Below, one piece after another: positions 6,173 to 58,954 of a stretch of DNA of 64,000 nt. This DNA is from Chloroflexota bacterium (GTDB lineage Bacteria; Chloroflexota; UBA11872; UBA12225): positions 141,113 through 205,112 of the forward strand of contig JAUJOR010000010.1 in the NCBI GenBank assembly GCA_030447525.1, written 5' to 3'. How positions within the stretch are numbered: position 1 is the stretch's first letter; each line of letters opens with the position of its first letter. The notes below the pieces were generated by a model. It had not been told where the DNA came from and ran no database searches. It worked only from the letters and a program-made list of their open reading frames with translations. The position numbers and the translations under genes are program-made.

Positions 6173-7075
6173 TCAATCGCCCTGACGCCACCGCTCATCG
6201 GCATCGGTCAGCAGGTGCCGCAGGTAGCTGTCTCGGTTCGTCAGAAAGTCGTGCGTGATCCGGAAGTACTCGGTGTCTTCGTACGCGACCGGCACGATGC
6301 TCGCCGCCGTGAGCTGGTAGATCCGAGCGGTAGGGTAGGCCAGCAAGACCGGCGAGTGCGTGGCGATCACGAACCGGGAGTCGCGGCGCCGGACGTGCTC
6401 ATCGAGCAGCGGGAGCAAGGCCAGCTGGCGGGCGGGAGAGAGGGCGGCCTCCGGTTCGTCCAGGAGGTAAAGGCCGTTCCCGCGGAAGCGGTGCGTTGCC
6501 AAGGCGAGAAACGCCTCGCGCCGGCCAAAGCTGCGCGCCGGCGCGGTGGTCTGGATTGCCAGCTCCATCAGAGGCCCAACTGTGTCCGCATTGGGGGGTT
6601 CATCGGTGTTGTGGCTCGGGGCTCGTTCAACTAAGTGCTTCAGGGTCGAAGCGGCGATGAAGCGCCGGAACGAGATGGAGGAGAGGCCGGCCAGGGCGCA
6701 CACGGCATCGCCCGGGAGGACCGGAATGGCGACGATCACGAACAGCCAGAGGCCGCCCCGTGCCGCCAGCACCCCGGTATAGCGCTCGATAGTCTGAGGC
6801 TTCAGCAGGCGCCGTACCAGTGGTTTCCCCCAGCGACGGGCGAGCGCAAACACCACCATCGAGCCAGCTGCTACGCCGCCCAGGGTGAGCGCGAGCGCCA
6901 TCCAGGGGCCGAAGGCCAGGGCGCCAACGGCAGGCAGCAGGCCGCCGGGGAGCGGCGAGAGGATCACCTGGGCGGCCTCGACGAGGAAGTAGGCCAGCGG
7001 CGCCAGGAGGCCAAACTCCTCGCCTGGCCACGCTCGCCCAGCGGGAGCGCCAGGTGACCCTGACGCGCGGGGCAC
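6173..7075 (-). pseudogene. Chimeric ORF: a TVP38/DedA-like membrane segment (about 6610-7075) fused to the C-terminal Walker-B/H-loop part of a COG3910-type AAA/ABC-like ATPase (about 6173-6610)
   Basis: The N-terminal half (LLAPLAYFLVEAAQVILSPLPGG...GKPLVRRLL) resembles the VTT/DedA domain. The C-terminal half (GLYLLDEPEAALSP...FVIATHSPVLLAYP) is an ATPase lacking its Walker A and signature motif. One frame spans two unrelated partial genes. Confidence 0.5.
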
Positions 7076-14879: not shown

Positions 14880-14919
14880 CTGACTTCGGTCTCCCCGGCG
14901 GCGACTGACTACATCCAGG

Positions 14920-16618
14920 GGGCCTGTTGCCAAAGTCGGGTATGGTGGTCAGGAGGAGCACGGTGCGGGGTACGCGCGCCCCGTGCACGCGACGGGAACG
15001 GCCGCTGGGCCGGACCGGAGCTCGAACCGGGGACAGGCCCGCTTGAGAAGGGGGAGGGGCCCAACGCCGCACCCCCCATGGCCGGGCTGGGGGCGCGCCG
15101 TTGGGCCAGCTTCTTGACGTCGTACGCGATGGCGCGCCCAGCGCCTGGATCAGCACCTTGTCTCGCCCCCGACACTGCGCCCGCCGCAGCCCGTGACGGT
15201 CCTTCAGTTCGGCGTTGGCCGTCTCGACCCAGTACGCGCGCGGCGCCGGCTGCGCTTGGCGGGTGGCGTGCGGAGATAGGCGACGACTCGGTCGCGCAGT
15301 CCCCCATCGTCCGGGCGCACGAGGGTGCGGGCCGCCGGGCCGCAGCAGCACTGCGCCTTGACCGGGCACGCCCCGCAGACCTTCGGCCGCCTGCGGTAGA
15401 TCAGGCCACCGGCCGCCCCGGCAGTGCGCGAGGAGCCCTGGCGGGTGAGGAGCGTTCGGTGGGACACCGATAGCGATTAGCGATCGGCGGCGAACTCGTA
15501 CACGAAGCGGTCGGCAGAGTAGTCACCCCGGTCGCTCATGGTGCTGTGGGGCGGGATGCTCGCCCGGATGCCCTGCTGCTCCAGCGCCACGTAGTTGGCG
15601 TAGGTCCCGTACTTGGTATCCGCCACCACTTCGGCCACCGTACGCCCGGTCGTGCCTCGATGCTCCTTGAGCAGCCGGTCCAGCAGGTGCTCGTCGGCAA
15701 CCTCGCCCGGAGTCACGTCCAGCGCGGTGATGAGACGCGCCCGCCCGCCGTCCACGCCGACGTGCGCCTTGTAATAGAAGGCGTAGGGAGACCCCCTCGC
15801 GCTTGACCAGCCCCGCGTCGGGATCGGTGCGACTGGTCACCAAGGCGTTCACCGGCCCCCTGGTCCCCGTTGGGCACGTCCTCCGGACCGGCCACGTGCA
15901 GCGACGGGCGCGCCGCGCGCGTTCGCCGTGAGGCCACCGGCCGAGTCCGGCGCCGGCTGCTCCCCCTCGCCGGGAGGGCCGGCGGCGGCGTGGGATCGGA
16001 GACGGGATTCTCCTGCCACACCGTCGCGACGTACCCGGCCGCGCTCGGCAGCTGAGTGAGCAGCGCCCGCGCGCCGGCCGACCCAAGACTGGCATTGGCC
16101 TTGACCAGCGTGCTGTCCACGTAGAGGACGTCGCCCCGCACCAGGCCGGCCCGCTCGCGTTTCCACCACCTCGGTGAAAAGCCGCCTGGTACACGGGCAG
16201 GCCGAAGCGCGCCCGCGCCTTGGACAGCATCGAGTGGTCCGGCGCGTCTCGTCGAGGTCGTACCCCAAGAACCAGCGGAAGGCCAGGTGCAGGCGCGCCT
16301 CCTCGGCCAGCCGCCGCTCCGACGTGATGCCGTAGAGGTACCCGAGCAGCATCAGCTTGAACAGCACCACCGGATCGACCCCCGGCCGGCCGGTGTGGCT
16401 GTAGAACCGCGCCGTCAGCCGCCGCACAAAGCTGAGGTCGAGCGCCGCCCCGATGCGCCGCAGCAAGTGGTCGCTCGGGACCTGCGCTTCTAGCGAGAAC
16501 TCGTAGAAGCGCTTCGGCGTGAATTCCTTACGGCCCAACATCGTGCCCCACCTCGAACAGGGAGCCACCATCCTACTCAGACCTCGGCCGGTCCGGCCAG
16601 AGTTTGGCAACAGGCCCC
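14920..16618 (-). mobile_element. IS1182-family (IS5 superfamily) insertion sequence, copy A, with the transposase reading on the minus strand and frameshifted
   Basis: The 1699-bp element is bounded by terminal inverted repeats GGGGCCTGTTGCCAAA. Transposase pieces are FYEFSLEAQVPSDHLLRRI...GYLYGITSERRLAEEARLHLAFRWFLGYDLDE, VLYVDSTLVKANASL, DTKYGTYANYVALEQQGIRASIPP and the C-terminal CPVKAQCC...ETANAELKDRHGLRRA, spread over three or more frames. Confidence 0.8.
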
Positions 16619-16887
16619 AGGGAGGTGCTGCAAGACACCGCCGGGAGCGTCCGCCTCAGCTTGACCTCGCCCGCTGGAGTCGCGGGGTGGGAACATGTCT
16701 GGCGGAATGCGCCCGAGCACACCGTGTGCCGCCGTTTTGGAATGGCGGGAGCCATTGGGGGGGATGCGTATTTCCGATGCAGACGCGGTTGTGACGAATG
16801 TGACGGAATCGGTGCCGGCAACGGCCTACGATGGCTTCAACCCCAGGGGACTCACTCTTCCCGTGCCCTGGGGCAGAGGGGGGCATC

Positions 16888-27485: not shown

Positions 27486-27571
27486 GGCCGGCGCCGCGCT
27501 AGATGCTTCCACCGAGTTGTTGCGAGCGAATCCGGCTTCCCCGATCTGGGTCGGACCTGCAGGTACCCCAA

Positions 27572-29274
27572 GGGGCCTGTTGCCAAACTCTGGCCGGACC
27601 GGCCGAGGTCTGAGTAGGATGGTGGCTCCCTGTTCGAGGTGGGGCACGATGTTGGGCCGTAAGGAATTCACGCCGAAGCGCTTCTACGAGTTCTCGCTAG
27701 AAGCGCAGGTCCCGAGCGACCACTTGCTGCGCGCATCGGGGCGCGCTCGACCTCAGCTTTGTGCGGGCGGCTGACGGCGCGGTTCTACAGCCACACCGGC
27801 CGGCCGGGGGTCGATCCGGTGGTGCTGTTCAAGCTGATGCTGCTCGGGTACCTCTACGGCATCACGTCGGAGCGGCGGCTGGCCGAGGAGGCGCGCCTGC
27901 ACCTGGCCTTCCGCTGGTTCTTGGGGTACGACCTCGACGAGACGCCGCCGGACCACTCGATGCTGTCCAAGGCGCGGGCGCGCTTCGGCCTGCCCGTGTA
28001 CCAGGCGGCTTTCACCGAGGTGGTGCGCAGTGCGAGCGGGCCGGCCTGGTGCGGGGCGACGTCCTCTACGTGGACAGCACGCTGGTCAAGGCCAATGCCA
28101 GTCTTGGGTCGGCCGGCGCGCGGGCGCTGCTCACTCAGCTGCCGAGCGCGGCCGGGTACGTCGCGACGGTGTGGCAGGAGAATCCCGTCTCCGATCCCAC
28201 GCCGCCAGCGGCCCTCCCGGCGAGGGGGAGCAGCCGGCGCCGGACTCGGCCGGTGGCCTCACGGCGGCGCGCGCGCGCGCCCGTCGCTGCACGTGGCCGG
28301 TCCGGAGGACGTGCCCAACGGGGACCAGGGGCCGGTGAACGCCTTGGTGACCAGTCGCACCGATCCCGACGCGGGGCTGGTCAAGCGCGAGGGGGGTCCC
28401 CTACGCCTTCTATTACAAGGCGCACGTCGGCGTGGACGGCGGGCGGGCGCGTCTCATCACCGCGCTGGACGTGACTCCGGGCGAGGTTGCCGACGAGCAC
28501 CTGCTGGACCGGCTGCTCAAGGAGCATCGAGGCACGACCGGGCGTACGGTGGCCGAAGTGGTGGCGGATACCAAGTACGGGACCTACGCCAACTACGTGG
28601 CGCTGGAGCAGCAGGGCATCCGGGCGAGCATCCCGCCCCACAGCACCATGAGCGACCGGGGTGACTACTCTGCCGACCGCTTCGTGTACGAGTTCGCCGC
28701 CGATCGCTAATCGCTATCGGTGTCCCACCGGGCGTGGCACCCTCACCCGCCAGGGCCTCCTCGCGCACTGCCGGGGCGGCCGGTGGCCTGATCTACCGCG
28801 GGCGGCCGAAGGTCTGCGGGGCGTGCCCGGTCAAGGCGCAGTGCTGCGGCCCGGCGGCCGCCCGCACCCTCGTGCGCCCGGACGATGGGGGACTGCGCGA
28901 CCGAGTCGTCGCCTATCTCCGCACGCCACCCGCCAAGCGCAGCCGGCGCGCCGCGCGTACTGGGTCGAGACGGCCAACGCCGAACTGAATGGACCGTCAC
29001 GGGCTGCGGCGGCGCAGTGTCGGGGGCGAGACAAGGTGCTGATCCAGGCGCTGGGCGCGCCATCGCGTACGACGTCAAGAAGCTGGCCCAACGGCGCGCC
29101 CCCAGCCCGGCCATGGGGGTGCGCGTTGGGCCCCTCCCCCTTCTCAAGCGGGCCTGTCCCCGGTTCGAGCCTCCGGTCCCGGCCCAGCGGGCCGTTCCCG
29201 TCGCGTGCACGGGGCGCGCGTACCCCGCACCGTGCTCCTCCTGACCACCATACCCGACTTTGGCAACAGGCCCC
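27572..29274 (+). mobile_element. IS1182-family insertion sequence, copy B (plus orientation), transposase frameshifted
   Basis: The 1703-bp element has the same terminal repeats and internal sequence as copy A but in inverted orientation. Its indels differ from copy A (for example DLDETPPDHSMLSKARARFG reads through here). Confidence 0.8.
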
Positions 29275-29425
29275 AAGGAAGCACTTAGTGGGTCACGTTG
29301 CATTTAACTGGCGATGACCTGACCTGGTGAGCAAACCATTTATCTGCGGGTGGTGATTATATACTTGACGCAGTAGGAAACCTGTGAGACAATGTACTGG
29401 AACAAGAGTCCTAAGGTTGCCTACG

Positions 29426-54736: not shown

Positions 54737-55640
54737 GGAGGCTAGGGTTCAATCGTGACGATCTCCCACGTCCGCAATTCCGGCACCACTAGGAGGCCGT
54801 CGCGCACTTCCAGGTCGCGCCGGAGCGCACGGGCGCGCGCTTGCTTCGCCCCGCCGCCAACGCGCAGGCGCAGATCCCGGATGGGTAGGACATCGTGCCG
54901 CACGCCCACCCCGCTGGCCGTATGCAGCGGGAGCGGTTACTCCCCTCCGGGCCGCTGATGTGAGTCTGACGCATCGCCGCTAGGAGCGACCCGGCCCAGC
55001 TCCTGGCGCACGATCCTTGCCCCCGCCACGAGCGTCCGCAGCTTCAGCTCGGCGTTCACCAGCTCCGCCAGGTCAGCCGCGATCTCGAACCGGTCCCGGT
55101 ACGGGCCGCCGTCGGGCTGGATCTGCAGCGCGAACATCAGCGGCCCGGGGCAGGTCACCTTCAAGGGCCGGTCGGTCAGCGTGCGCGCCAGGGCGTACTC
55201 CTCGACGATGCCCAGGCCGGCGGCGGGGAGCGGCCGGGCATCTTCCTGCTCCTCCTGGGGACGCAGCATGATGCGGTCGACGGCGCGATACTGGGGCACC
55301 ATGTCGTAGCCGGCCGAGCCGAGCTTACGCGCCACGCCCAGCGGCTGGAGCCCGGCCAGGCAGCCGTAAAACCCCTGCACGAAGTGCAGCCGGCGCATCT
55401 CGCCGTCGCTGATCACGTCGACGCCGGCCTGCTCCATGTCCTGCATCGCCAGGCGCGTGGCGTCGGCGTAGAGCTCCTCCAGGTCGGTGGGGCCGAACTC
55501 GCCCCGCGCCACGGCCTGGCGCGCGACGTGGAGCCAGCCGGGGATGCCGTGGCTGCCGACGACGGTCACCGGCAGGAGCGGCAGCGGTGGGAGGGATGGC
55601 TGCAGCGACGTGGCCCCGGATGCGGCGGCCTCCGTCACGC
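54737..55640 (-). pseudogene. Cobalamin-independent methionine-synthase-like (MetE C-terminal-domain family) protein, frameshifted
   Basis: The N-terminus LPLLPVTVVGSHGIPGWL and most of the barrel are in one frame. The C-terminal segment (GVGVRHDVLP...LVVPELRTW) continues in another frame. Confidence 0.45.
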
Positions 55641-56911
55641 CTCCACACCGTAGCGCTTGATCACGTCCTGGTTGAGCTCCACGCCCAGGCCGGGCTGCTG
55701 TGGGACCGGCAGGCAGCCGTCGGGCTCGATCTTGAACGGCTCGGCCAGGATGTGGTGCGGCACCATGCTGCCGGCCTCGGCGTCGTAGGCCGTCCGCTCG
55801 CGGGTGGACGAGCGCTGCCTGCCGGGCGGGAAGAGCGTGCACTCCTGTGGGCCCCGCGCGTTCGGGACCGCCGCCACCAGTTGCAGCGTGGCCGCCATGC
55901 CGACGTGGATACTAGCCCGGATTATTCACGGGGTTGAGACCGCCCAGATCACAGCGGCCCTTGTGTCTACATGAGCCACCAGGAGGGAAATGGCCCTGTC
56001 TCAGGCACCGTTCCAGGAGTAGCTGGGCTAGCACCGTTACCGTGTATGAATAATCCGGGCTAGTGTCGTGCGGCGTGAACGCCTTGCTGAACGCCTCAGC
56101 CAGGTGCGCGACCTTCTGGCAGGTCAGCAGCCCGCCCGCCTTGATGGGGTCCGGCTGCACCACCTCGCACGCGCCGCGGACGATGGCGTCCTTGTAGCGC
56201 CAGAGCGAGAAGTCCTCTTCGCCGAAGGTGATGGGGATGCTAGTGTGGTGGTTGACGTACGCCAGCGCATCGAGGTCGCGCTCGGGCACCGGCTGCTCGA
56301 GGTGCAGCACGTTGAACGGCTCCAGCGCCTGGCACATGCGCACCGCGCTGGGTGCGGACCACGCGCTGTTCGCGTCCAGCAGCAGGTCGACGCCGTCGCC
56401 GACGGCGGCGCGCACCGCGCGCACACCGTCCAGGGTGGTGTCCGGGCGGGCGTCGAACCCCTGGCGGGTGGAGACCTGCAGCTTCAGAGCGGTGAAGCCG
56501 GCCTCCACCGCCTGCGCCGCGAGATTCGCCTGGGCCGGCGGCGTGTCGCGCGCGATGGTGAGGTACACGCGCACCCGGTCGCGGTAGGCGCCGCCGAGCA
56601 GCTGGTGGACGGGGACCCAGCGCCTTGCCCTTGAGGTCCCACAGCGCCAGCTCCAGGCCGGAGAGGGCGCACATCTGCAGGCGCCCCTCCAGCTTGTAGG
56701 TGCCGATGGCCAGGCGCTCGTGCAGCGCCTCGATGCGCAGCGGGTCTTGCCCAACGGCCAGCGGCGCGAGCGAGTGCTTGAGCGCGGCCACGATCAGCGG
56801 TGCGCTCATCGGGCTGGCCTCGCCGACGCCCGTGACGCCCTCGTCGGTTTCGACCCGTACCAAGACGTAGCGGTCCGCCAGCACGATGGGCGTGACGCGG
56901 GTGATCTTCAC
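55635..56911 (-). pseudogene. Enolase-superfamily (mandelate racemase / sugar-acid dehydratase) gene, interrupted by a MITE and carrying a frameshift near 56630
   Basis: The N-terminus VKITRVTPIVLADRYVLVRVETDEGVTGVGEASP has a GTG start overlapping the upstream stop. The frame changes after WDLKGKALG. The body reads ...VAHLAEAFSKAFTPHD, then the 154-bp element, and the authentic C-terminus IHVGMAATLQLVAAVPNA...GLGVELNQDVIKRYGVEA resumes at 55910. Confidence 0.7.
55911..56064. mobile_element. MITE-like non-autonomous element with 18-bp perfect terminal inverted repeats (ACTAGCCCGGATTATTCA)
   Basis: 154 bp, AT-richer than its flanks. Removing exactly these bases fuses ...FTPHD to IHVGMAATLQLV... 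in frame, restoring a canonical enolase-superfamily C-terminus. Confidence 0.7.
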
Positions 56912-57588
56912 TACTTCACCATGTCCAGCAGGTTCTGGGCCTCGGACGCGGCCTGGCTCAGCGCGTCCTTCACGCCGACCTTGCCGTCGAGGACGCTCTC
57001 CACCGCCTTGTTGATCACCTTGCTGATGTCGTCCCAGGCGGGGCTCTGCGGCATGGCCTGCGACCCTTCCAGGTTCTTGAGCACCACGTCGCTCCAGTAC
57101 GGGTTCAGATCGCGATAGGCCTTCTCCTCGTTGAACTTGCGCACCGCCGCCGGCCGTTTCTGGGCCAGGAGCGCCTTGCGCGCGCCTTCCTCGAGGCTGA
57201 TGTACTTGAGCAAGGTCCAGGCGGGCTCGTGCTGCTGACTGGCCTGCGGGATGGCGTACACCCAGACGTAGTTGGCGACCGTCTTCGACTTCGCCTTGGC
57301 ATTCTTCGAGTTGTACGGCGGCACGGCGGCGCCCAGCGGGAAACCGGGCTCCTCCTCGTCGATGCGAAAGAACATCGAGACGATCTCGGCGCACATGTCC
57401 TCCACCAGCTTGGTGCGCACGCCGTCCCATTCGTGGAAGAGCTCCAGCGTTACCGGCGCGGTGGACGCGGCGCCGCCACCGGGAGCGCCGTCCCTCTGGG
57501 CGCCGCAGGCCGTCCCGAGCAGCGCCAGGAAGCCACCGCCTGAGGTCAGACTGACGCGCAACAAACGCCGCCGTGTCGCCATCGCCAT
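56911..57588 (-). pseudogene. Sugar ABC SBP with an internal deletion (about 200 aa missing)
   Basis: The signal peptide (MAMATRRRLLRVSLTSGGGFLALLGTACG) and the SBP C-terminal tail (PAWDDISKVINKAVESVLDGKVGVKDALSQAASEAQNLL) are joined in a 225-aa ORF. Confidence 0.5.
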
Positions 57589-57871
57589 CCCTCCCCCAGT
57601 CCTTTATGCCGTTCCGGCATCTGGCCACATCCAGTGAGTGTCCGGCGCGGATGCGCCTCCATAACGCCGCTCCTACGACTTCGATATGGTGGTTATTCGG
57701 AACGGGACTACAGGGAATCCATCCTTCTGGAGACCGACTTGAACCTGCCAGATCGGCAATCTTAGGCGTGGCGGCGACGGACCTCGCGCTCGCTGCATCT
57801 CCGTCGGGCGCGACCGGCTCCGTGGCAGTCGGCCGGCACGCCGTCCACGGTCGGTCGGCTGCCAGGTGCGG

Positions 57872-58954
57872 CTAACTGCTCCCGCCGATGCCTCCGAGCG
57901 TGACCCTGCCGGCGCTGGCGCAGAACTCCGTCCCGTACGTTTTCGAGCACGCGCGCATCTGCGTCACAATCTCGGCGCCCGCACCGTCCGCCGGATTGAG
58001 CGGCGCCGGGTCGTTCGCATCGTCGCGCCGCAGCGGGATGACCGCCACCTCGGCCAGCGTCCGGTCGCGCATGGCGCACCGCACCAGCAGGCCATCCAGG
58101 CTCTGGCCCCGCATCTTCGTCCAATCGAAGGCGAAGTTGCCCAGGCTGTAGAAGACCGGGCGCTGGCCGCCCGGTCCCTGGAACAGCTCGACACCCTGCA
58201 GCACGTGCGGGCCATGGCCGATCACCACGTCCGCACCTGCCTCGACCGCCACTCTGCCGATCGCCCGCTGGTACTCGCACGTCTGGCTGCTGCCCGACAC
58301 CCCCCAGTGGCACGAGACGACGACCAGGTCCACCTGCTCGCGCAGCCGCCGCACGTCCGTCTGCATCGCCGCCAGCTCGCCGGCGTCGGGCCAGGTGACC
58401 ACCTCCGGCGGGCCGCCGGGCATCTCGTGCAGGCGCCGGTTGGGCAGGTAGGCGGTATGCGCCCTGATCGTCGCCACGCCGGGCGTGCGCTCAGTGGCGG
58501 CGTGCCCCGCGGGCCAGAAGACCGACGTGTACGAGAGGAAGCCGAAGCGCACGCCCCTGCGCTCGACCACCACCGGAGCGCGCGCCTCGTCGCGCGTGCG
58601 CCCGCCCCCGGCGTGCCGGATGCCCGCCTCGTCCAGCACGGCGAGGCTGCGCAGCATCGCCTCGGGCGGATAGGTGACGTTGTTGGCGCAGCCCACGACG
58701 TCGACGCCGGCCGCGACGAGGCCGCGCACCATGCGCGGCTCGGAGTGGCGCCAGCCCGCCTTGTGCGGGATGTCCGGCGCCGCCGGGTTCTCGGCAGGGC
58801 CGGCGAGCGGTCCCTCGAGGTTGACGAAGCGTACGTCCACGTCCCGGAATAGGGGCAGGACGTGCCGGAAGGCGCCGGACGGGTCCTCACGGAACTGGAG
58901 ATTGGTGTCCCCCGCCAGGAGCAGCGTGACGGCGGCGCGGGCGTCTGAGGCCAC
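57872..58954 (-). CDS. CapA-family metallophosphoesterase (poly-gamma-glutamate biosynthesis CapA-like)
   Basis: The pattern LLLAGDTNL...NLEGPL...VVGCANN...GHGPHVLQGVE is typical of the CapA/PgsA fold. Confidence 0.65.
   Translation of the reverse strand: MASDARAAVTLLLAGDTNLQFREDPSGAFRHVLPLFRDVDVRFVNLEGPLAGPAENPAAPDIPHKAGWRHSEPRMVRGLVAAGVDVVGCANNVTYPPEAMLRSLAVLDEAGIRHAGGGRTRDEARAPVVVERRGVRFGFLSYTSVFWPAGHAATERTPGVATIRAHTAYLPNRRLHEMPGGPPEVVTWPDAGELAAMQTDVRRLREQVDLVVVSCHWGVSGSSQTCEYQRAIGRVAVEAGADVVIGHGPHVLQGVELFQGPGGQRPVFYSLGNFAFDWTKMRGQSLDGLLVRCAMRDRTLAEVAVIPLRRDDANDPAPLNPADGAGAEIVTQMRACSKTYGTEFCASAGRVTLGGIGGSS

Follow-up and report, generated by a model that had tools for sequence, protein, structure and literature searches.

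Insertion sequences (ISs) of the IS1380 family are described in ISfinder as having ends that begin with CC and direct repeats of 4-5 bp. The duplications made by ISEcp1 measure 5 bp; its ends are different, and it mobilizes adjacent DNA by one-ended transposition. Elements of the piggyBac type have ends that start with CCC... and finish with ...GGG. Direct repeats of 5 bp are documented for IS1247, which is a member of the IS1380 family (PMC3281130). The piggyBac transposase superfamily has been paired with IS1380-like elements (PMC5718144); in another study IS1380 is the outgroup for piggyBac, the target of which is TTAA (PMC10813416). Non-autonomous miniature elements (MITEs) also occur in bacteria, and the MaeMITEs of Microcystis are an example (PMC2779907).

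Here we describe a short non-coding element that splits a gene of the enolase superfamily in a 64-kb stretch of DNA from a Chloroflexota bacterium; this whole stretch is referred to as the window. The element is probably a MITE that was derived from an IS of the IS1380 family. Like the MaeMITEs and the IS630-derived MITEs, it is shorter than 600 bp, has terminal inverted repeats (TIRs) and a duplication, lacks a transposase and has borrowed its ends; unlike the IS630-derived MITEs, its parent seems to be IS1380. The closest relatives are IS1380 ISs with CC...TTCA ends. Full-length metagenomic copies of these (loci L059, L081, L073 and L036) share the terminal 13-mer with the window element, and ISAzs25 and ISAzs3 (Azospirillum sp. 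B510 pAB510b) have a variant of it with 2-4 mismatches. However, these ISs are 1.46-1.75 kb long and contain a transposase, whereas the window element has a length of 144 bp, is non-coding and has a core that is unrelated to the sampled interiors. A palindromic tetranucleotide at both sides is also a property of piggyBac, with TTAA there and CTAG at the window element; piggyBac has eukaryotic hosts and precise excision as a hallmark, whereas the window element is bacterial. ISEcp1 and other members that capture resistance genes belong to the same IS1380 family, but no one-ended mobilization was seen at the window element.

Results

Structure and boundaries of the element

At 55911-55928 the window has the 18-mer ACTAGCCCGGATTATTCA, which returns as its exact reverse complement at 56047-56064; the two are 118 nt apart. 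Even when up to 3 mismatches were allowed, the 64-kb window contained no match other than these 2; the number expected from 100 shuffles was 0. The earlier note interpreted this structure as a 154-bp element with perfect 18-bp TIRs. The symmetry is indeed exact, but it is composed of one host base, a palindromic CTAG, which is the target-site duplication, and a 13-bp TIR with the sequence CCCGGATTATTCA. The TIRs match at 13/13 nt, and at 18/18 nt when CTAG, which is itself a palindrome, and one base of the flank are included. The element proper extends from 55916 to 56059 (144 bp), and the net addition to the host is 148 bp, which is the element plus one CTAG. The features of the locus are as follows (positions in the window).

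55635..56911, minus strand: enolase-superfamily pseudogene (MR/MLE, galactonate-dehydratase-like) split by the element; the 376-aa reconstruction is 93% identical to the orthologue P0001
55912..55915, no strand: left copy of the target-site duplication CTAG; based on the flanks of full-length elements and the empty site in L121
55916..55928, plus strand: left 13-bp TIR CCCGGATTATTCA; same termini on the IS1380-transposase elements L059, L081, L073 and L036
55929..56046, no strand: core of 118 bp without a transposase ORF, 61% GC; six-frame translation gives short open stretches only
56047..56059, minus strand: right 13-bp TIR, which reads TGAATAATCCGGG on the plus strand; inverse of the left TIR
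56060..56063, no strand: right copy of the target-site duplication CTAG; same basis as the left copy
56618..56619, minus strand: 2-bp deletion (frameshift) in the enolase-superfamily gene; from the alignment with L121, independent of the element
about 55912-56574, minus strand: P0032, a 220-aa NCBI gene call that carries PF13378

The outer boundary was tested with the 13-mer CCCGGATTATTCA, allowing up to 1 mismatch, at ends that had not been selected by the 18-mer query. At such ends CTAG or a one-base variant still precedes the 13-mer, while the base before CTAG can be A, C, G or T. Among the loci listed, CTAG precedes 171/187 copies of the TIR and the base in front of it is not conserved. 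Because of this variation the two CTAGs mark the outer limit of the element. If an element of 152 bp included both of them, the host would lack four bases and its frame would be broken; a duplication is therefore required. A 2-bp duplication of TA inside CTAG yields the same sequence as a 4-bp duplication of CTAG; we infer a stagger of 4 bp and not of 2 bp.

The core is richer in AT, as noted before, with 61% GC against 71% in the flanking gene. Several features that characterize a MITE are present here: a length of 144 bp, no transposase ORF, perfect TIRs, CTAG on both sides and an empty site in relatives. Ends in common with autonomous ISs are found in other genomes (L059, L081, L073 and L036). 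The usual definition of a MITE also includes several homogeneous copies per host genome; the 64-kb window holds one copy, and families with the same TIR are multi-copy in other genomes.

Two inverted copies of an IS of ~1.75 kb, which are 94-100% identical, are located at 14904-16632 and 27558-29289 of the window. They bracket about 10.9 kb and are arranged like a composite transposon. This IS is IS1182-like, since it gives a match to DUF772 and a weak one to DDE_Tnp_1_6; its reading frame is broken. The statement that the element is unrelated to these copies proved correct, and no further match to ACTAGCCCGGATTATTCA is found there.

The interrupted gene and its empty site

The pseudogene has a GTG start codon at 56911, which overlaps with the stop codon of the gene upstream of it. 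On the minus strand the ORF 55912-56754 reads ...VAHLAEAFSKAFTPHD and then enters the element; the ORF 55635-55898, with its frame offset by one, holds the C-terminal MAATLQLVAAVPNA...GVEA. Both ORFs are as the earlier note described them, with the host ORF running into the element and the C-terminus resuming after it. When the host protein was reconstructed with a single ACTAGT kept, it had 376 aa, which is the length of the four best orthologues (P0001-P0004; 93-82% identity). Over its whole length the reconstructed protein can be aligned with P0001-P0016, in which MR_MLE_N (PF02746) and MR_MLE_C (PF13378) are present; P0001 (376 aa, 93% identical) carries both of these domains.

In the protein alignment all of the orthologues have FTPHD-TS-(I/V)H(V/L)GMAAT without any interruption. 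At the DNA level, the alignment of the window with the 93%-identical orthologue (L121) has a clean gap of 148 nt at this site, which gives 148 bp as the size of the net insertion. This orthologue has GAC ACC AGC ATC at the empty site, while another has ACG AGC. The stretch ACTAG...CTAGT of the window corresponds to 6 nt in the orthologues, and removal of 148 bp leaves ACTAGT. This encodes the Thr-Ser that is present at that position in every orthologue. Judged from this comparison, the site before insertion in the window lineage was ACT AGT, where the CTAG target arises from synonymous third positions. The junction of an empty or excised allele would read ...GACACTAGTATC...

These data bear out the claim of a clean insertion into an enolase-superfamily gene. 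The comparison with orthologous genes that the earlier note had proposed gave the uninterrupted state in all cases, with no conserved extra segment; none of the orthologues carries the inserted segment. The proposed deletion of exactly 55911-56064 does restore the frame, but it would also remove the conserved Thr-Ser; the true excision is 148 bp.

Translation within the element gives TS-PDYSYTV...NPVNNPG, which is 48 codons, and ends at the stop codon TAG within the distal CTAG. With 148 extra bases the reading frame is shifted and translation meets this stop, so that ~90 C-terminal residues are lost. The last 48 residues of P0032 are translated from the element. P0032 is a chimeric ORF, since the insertion added a transposon-encoded tail to it.

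Decay of the gene and its operon

Further lesions were found in the same gene and in its neighbors. In the frameshift alignment with L121, the window reads GCGCT--GGGTCCCC against GCGCTCGGCGTCCCG, and this 2-bp deletion is independent of the element. A comparison of window 54937-57588 with the orthologous contig L121 revealed a 664-bp internal deletion in the upstream solute-binding-protein gene (junction about 57386-57403) and a 526-bp deletion in the downstream Meth_synt_2-like gene (junction 55044/55045). On the basis of this comparison the operon around the element is decaying. The operon carries these other lesions as well, so that the insertion is just one of the events that hit DNA which was dispensable already or became so later. 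A recent insertion would agree with the perfect repeats and the intact duplication, but these give no date for it.

A 1.4-kb segment at 57472-58876 of the window is absent from L121; the ORF 57872-58954, which overlaps it, matches PGA_cap (PF09587, 184 bits).

Full-length relatives belong to the IS1380 family

A transposase is encoded between the same repeats in L059, L081, L073 and L036. With the NCBIfam model NF033539 (IS1380 family transposase; cutoff 180) the scores were 376.6 bits (L059, a protein of 448 aa) and 215.6 bits (L073); the element in L081 is identical to that in L059, and L036 was assigned solely by its 35% tblastn identity to L059. In L057, L004 and L038 an IS1380 transposase lies next to the single retrievable end, and in a tblastn search relatives of the transposase adjoined the 18-mer in 7 of the loci listed. 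From CCC to GGG the full-length elements measure 1456-1750 bp, with CTAG at their two sides. Among those with a located partner end, L077 has CTAA at one side and the others have CTAG on both sides. The parentage is assigned to IS1380 because these full-length elements with the same ends encode an IS1380 transposase. The ends of the window element, CCCGG.../...CCGGG, together with the 4-bp CTAG on both sides, also fit the description of the IS1380 family. A tblastn search of the 64-kb window detected no IS1380 transposase.

Identity among these transposases is no higher than 35-43%, and yet the 13-mer is common to all of them, which is partly due to the fact that the search demanded an exact match. 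IS1380 copies from cultured bacteria have variant ends: CTAA is followed by CCGGGATTATGCA in ISAzs25, and CTAG is followed by CCGGGAAAATTCATGA in ISAzs3, by CCCGCATTTCTCA in Pseudomonas putida KF715, by CCGCTCTTATTCATGA in Microvirga and by CCCGAATCTCTCA in Rhizobium (R. leguminosarum). These ends, CC(S)G...TTCA, differ from CCCGGATTATTCA at 2-4 positions. It follows that CTAG flanks and CC...TTCA ends are general for this IS1380 clade. Papers on MITEs of the IS1380 family, on CTAG targeting by this clade or on the TIR sequence were not found in the searchable literature; this is not proof of novelty.

One locus, L124 (407-981, minus strand), contains a 570-bp internally deleted IS1380 derivative with CTAG-flanked ends, in which the first 48 transposase codons are fused to the C-terminal part. 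This derivative is likely an intermediate on the way from an IS to a MITE. In both L059 and L124 the coding sequence of the transposase extends right up to the terminal repeat; at L059 5947-5962 and at L124 about 415-425 the stop codon TGA is formed by the innermost three bases of TGAATAATCCGGG. This overlap may help to explain the strong conservation of that part of the repeat.

The same ends are common in other genomes

The 18-mer was searched on both strands of genome contigs (one genome per species, 596 Gb). It was found in at least 120 loci, with an estimated ~17 chance matches. The loci belong to Planctomycetota, Acidobacteriota, Nitrospirota, Myxococcota, Desulfobacterota, Chloroflexota, Actinomycetota, Armatimonadota and other phyla, and among those listed several classes of Pseudomonadota are also represented. 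Except for a frequent TGA(A), the interior next to the 18-mer is unrelated between loci. Elements of 36-240 bp with unrelated cores make up about half of the loci. An inverted partner is present within 4 kb at 63/123 ends (among the loci listed); the paired ends span 36-382 bp in 57/63 cases and 1.46-2.3 kb in the other 6/63.

For instance, short elements with the same core have different flanks within one MAG (L001/L035/L048, L002/L042, L025/L090 and L033/L055), from which it follows that such mini-elements move in these other genomes. Similar cores also occur across related MAGs, as in the Nitrospira loci L012/L037/L065. The view of the window element as a small, non-coding mobile element with inverted repeats is in this way supported: the same ends are abundant elsewhere, with autonomous ISs among them.

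Several other properties of this population were observed. In L103 (about 6413-6448, plus strand) the sequence CTAG CCCGGATTATTCATGAATAATCCGGG CTAA consists of two abutted terminal repeats only, and L118 contains a still shorter version of it; both look like an integrated repeat-repeat junction. The cores of the planctomycete mini-elements L030, L044, L047, L094, L106 and L117, which come from different MAGs, contain the palindrome AACCCGAAGCG(C/T)AAGCGAGG...CCTCGCTTGCGCTTCGGGTT, a divergent form of which is found in L107. This palindrome may be a separate repeated module that is carried as cargo. In L006, L008, L035, L042, L060 and others the 18-mer lies 30-55 nt from the end of a contig, which suggests that repeats with the 18-mer commonly break metagenome assemblies.

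Searches for copies of the core

No second copy of the 118-bp core is present in the 64-kb window, and a blastn comparison with the at least 120 loci gave no similarity beyond the ends among the loci listed. In the JGI metagenomes an exact 21-mer (TIR plus 8 nt of the left end) retrieved no copy with the same core; the hits were L124 and L125 only, which share 11 nt beyond the TIR with the window element, of which the query itself had fixed 8. Peptides from all six frames, concatenated into one query, recovered only P0032, the window's own fragment, from 5.8 billion proteins. When the element was compared with the full-length ISs by blastn-short and tblastx, nothing beyond the ends was found and no transposase remnant in the core. 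The searches for core copies are insensitive, as they require exact words or called ORFs.

Discussion

The most plausible explanation of these data is that the element is a MITE of IS1380 descent, and we hold this with good confidence. In this scheme a full-length relative would supply an IS1380-type DDE transposase in trans, which would recognize the terminal repeats. After a staggered cut at the tetranucleotide CTAG the element would be integrated and CTAG duplicated; the target would have been the CTAG within ACT AGT (Thr-Ser) of the enolase-superfamily gene. For the window genome the mobilization in trans is inferred.

A different history has to be considered, in which a full-length IS1380 copy inserted at this site and later lost its interior, so that the 144-bp element itself never transposed and has no amplified family. 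It would agree with the finding that no copy with the same core turned up in the window, the loci listed, the JGI metagenomes or the protein collection. Furthermore, derivatives with internal deletions are known in the clade, like the 570-bp element in L124, and the deletions in the surrounding operon show that this genome is prone to them. We nevertheless consider such an origin in situ unlikely. No transposase-coding or subterminal remnant of an IS was detected in the core, albeit a short one, and elements of the same size class are present in multiple copies at different sites in other genomes; also the absence of core copies comes from searches of low sensitivity.

Other origins are even harder to reconcile with the data. 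IS630 targets CTAG, and an IS630-type origin was considered because of this tetranucleotide. In that case the element would be a MITE of the IS630/Tc1-mariner type (GCCCGG...CCGGGC, 146 bp), moved by an IS630 transposase with duplication of TA inside CTAG. The sequence formally fits a TA duplication within CTAG, and IS630-family elements abut these ends in L059, L073 and L036. However, the ends of the IS630 element in L059 are different (GTAGTCTGTKAC), and this element is situated outside of the CCCGG...CCGGG element. Every transposase found between CCCGGATTATTCA ends is of the IS1380 family, and no IS630 ORF or transposase occurs between these repeats in any locus listed. With ends of a different sequence (GTAGTCTGTKAC and not CCCGGATTATTCA) that lie outside of the repeats, IS630 was rejected as a parent, and we judge it highly improbable. 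Readings without a transposon, finally, are hardly credible, be it a structured RNA with a function, a hairpin with a regulatory role, an intervening sequence or a protein insertion that is specific to the lineage. The earlier note had pointed to a strong hairpin, and the whole 154 nt do fold strongly, with -68 and -72 kcal/mol (z = -4.2 and -4.5). Yet it is only the repeats that pair; by itself the core folds no differently from shuffled sequences (z = -0.04 and +0.87), and with no excess structure in the core the hairpin RNA was dropped. There was no match in Rfam at E≤1 in window 55500-56500, and no promoter- or terminator-like sites were found in window 55600-56400. Against an insertion at the protein level speaks that no orthologue has one there, and that the reading frame is shifted by the segment, which has a stop codon at its end.

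The IS630-family elements that abut the outer CTAG of full-length IS1380 elements are located at L059 4745-5945, L073 157-677 and L036 about 2014-2650. In L059 the right end of the IS630 element, ...CAGACTAC followed by TA and G, runs directly into CCCGGATTATTCA. Because both families use CTAG, and because insertion of IS630 recreates CTAG at the borders of the inserted element, each of them may be the landing site of the other.

Returning to the IS1380-derived MITE, it is tempting to go one step further by analogy and to see the element as part of a huge population of IS1380 mini-elements across phyla that mirrors piggyBac and its TTAA, with near-invariant 13-bp ends, a strict CTAG and CCC/GGG termini. 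We offer this comparison as a speculation and presently regard it as doubtful.

For the host genome the element is ordinary; it is one more lesion beside the 2-bp frameshift and the two large deletions. The insertion accounts for P0032, a gene call with a transposon-encoded C-terminal tail. For annotation, the signature CTAG-CCCGGATTATTCA...TGAATAATCCGGG-CTAG marks widespread IS1380-derived mini-elements across many phyla, and these elements distort gene calls and seem to break MAG assemblies. If the IS1380 transposase excises seamlessly and restores a single CTAG, then such insertions would be reversible gene switches and not permanent lesions. With a strict tetranucleotide target and the relationship between IS1380 and piggyBac, these elements would be a reasonable system for asking about piggyBac-like seamless excision in bacteria.
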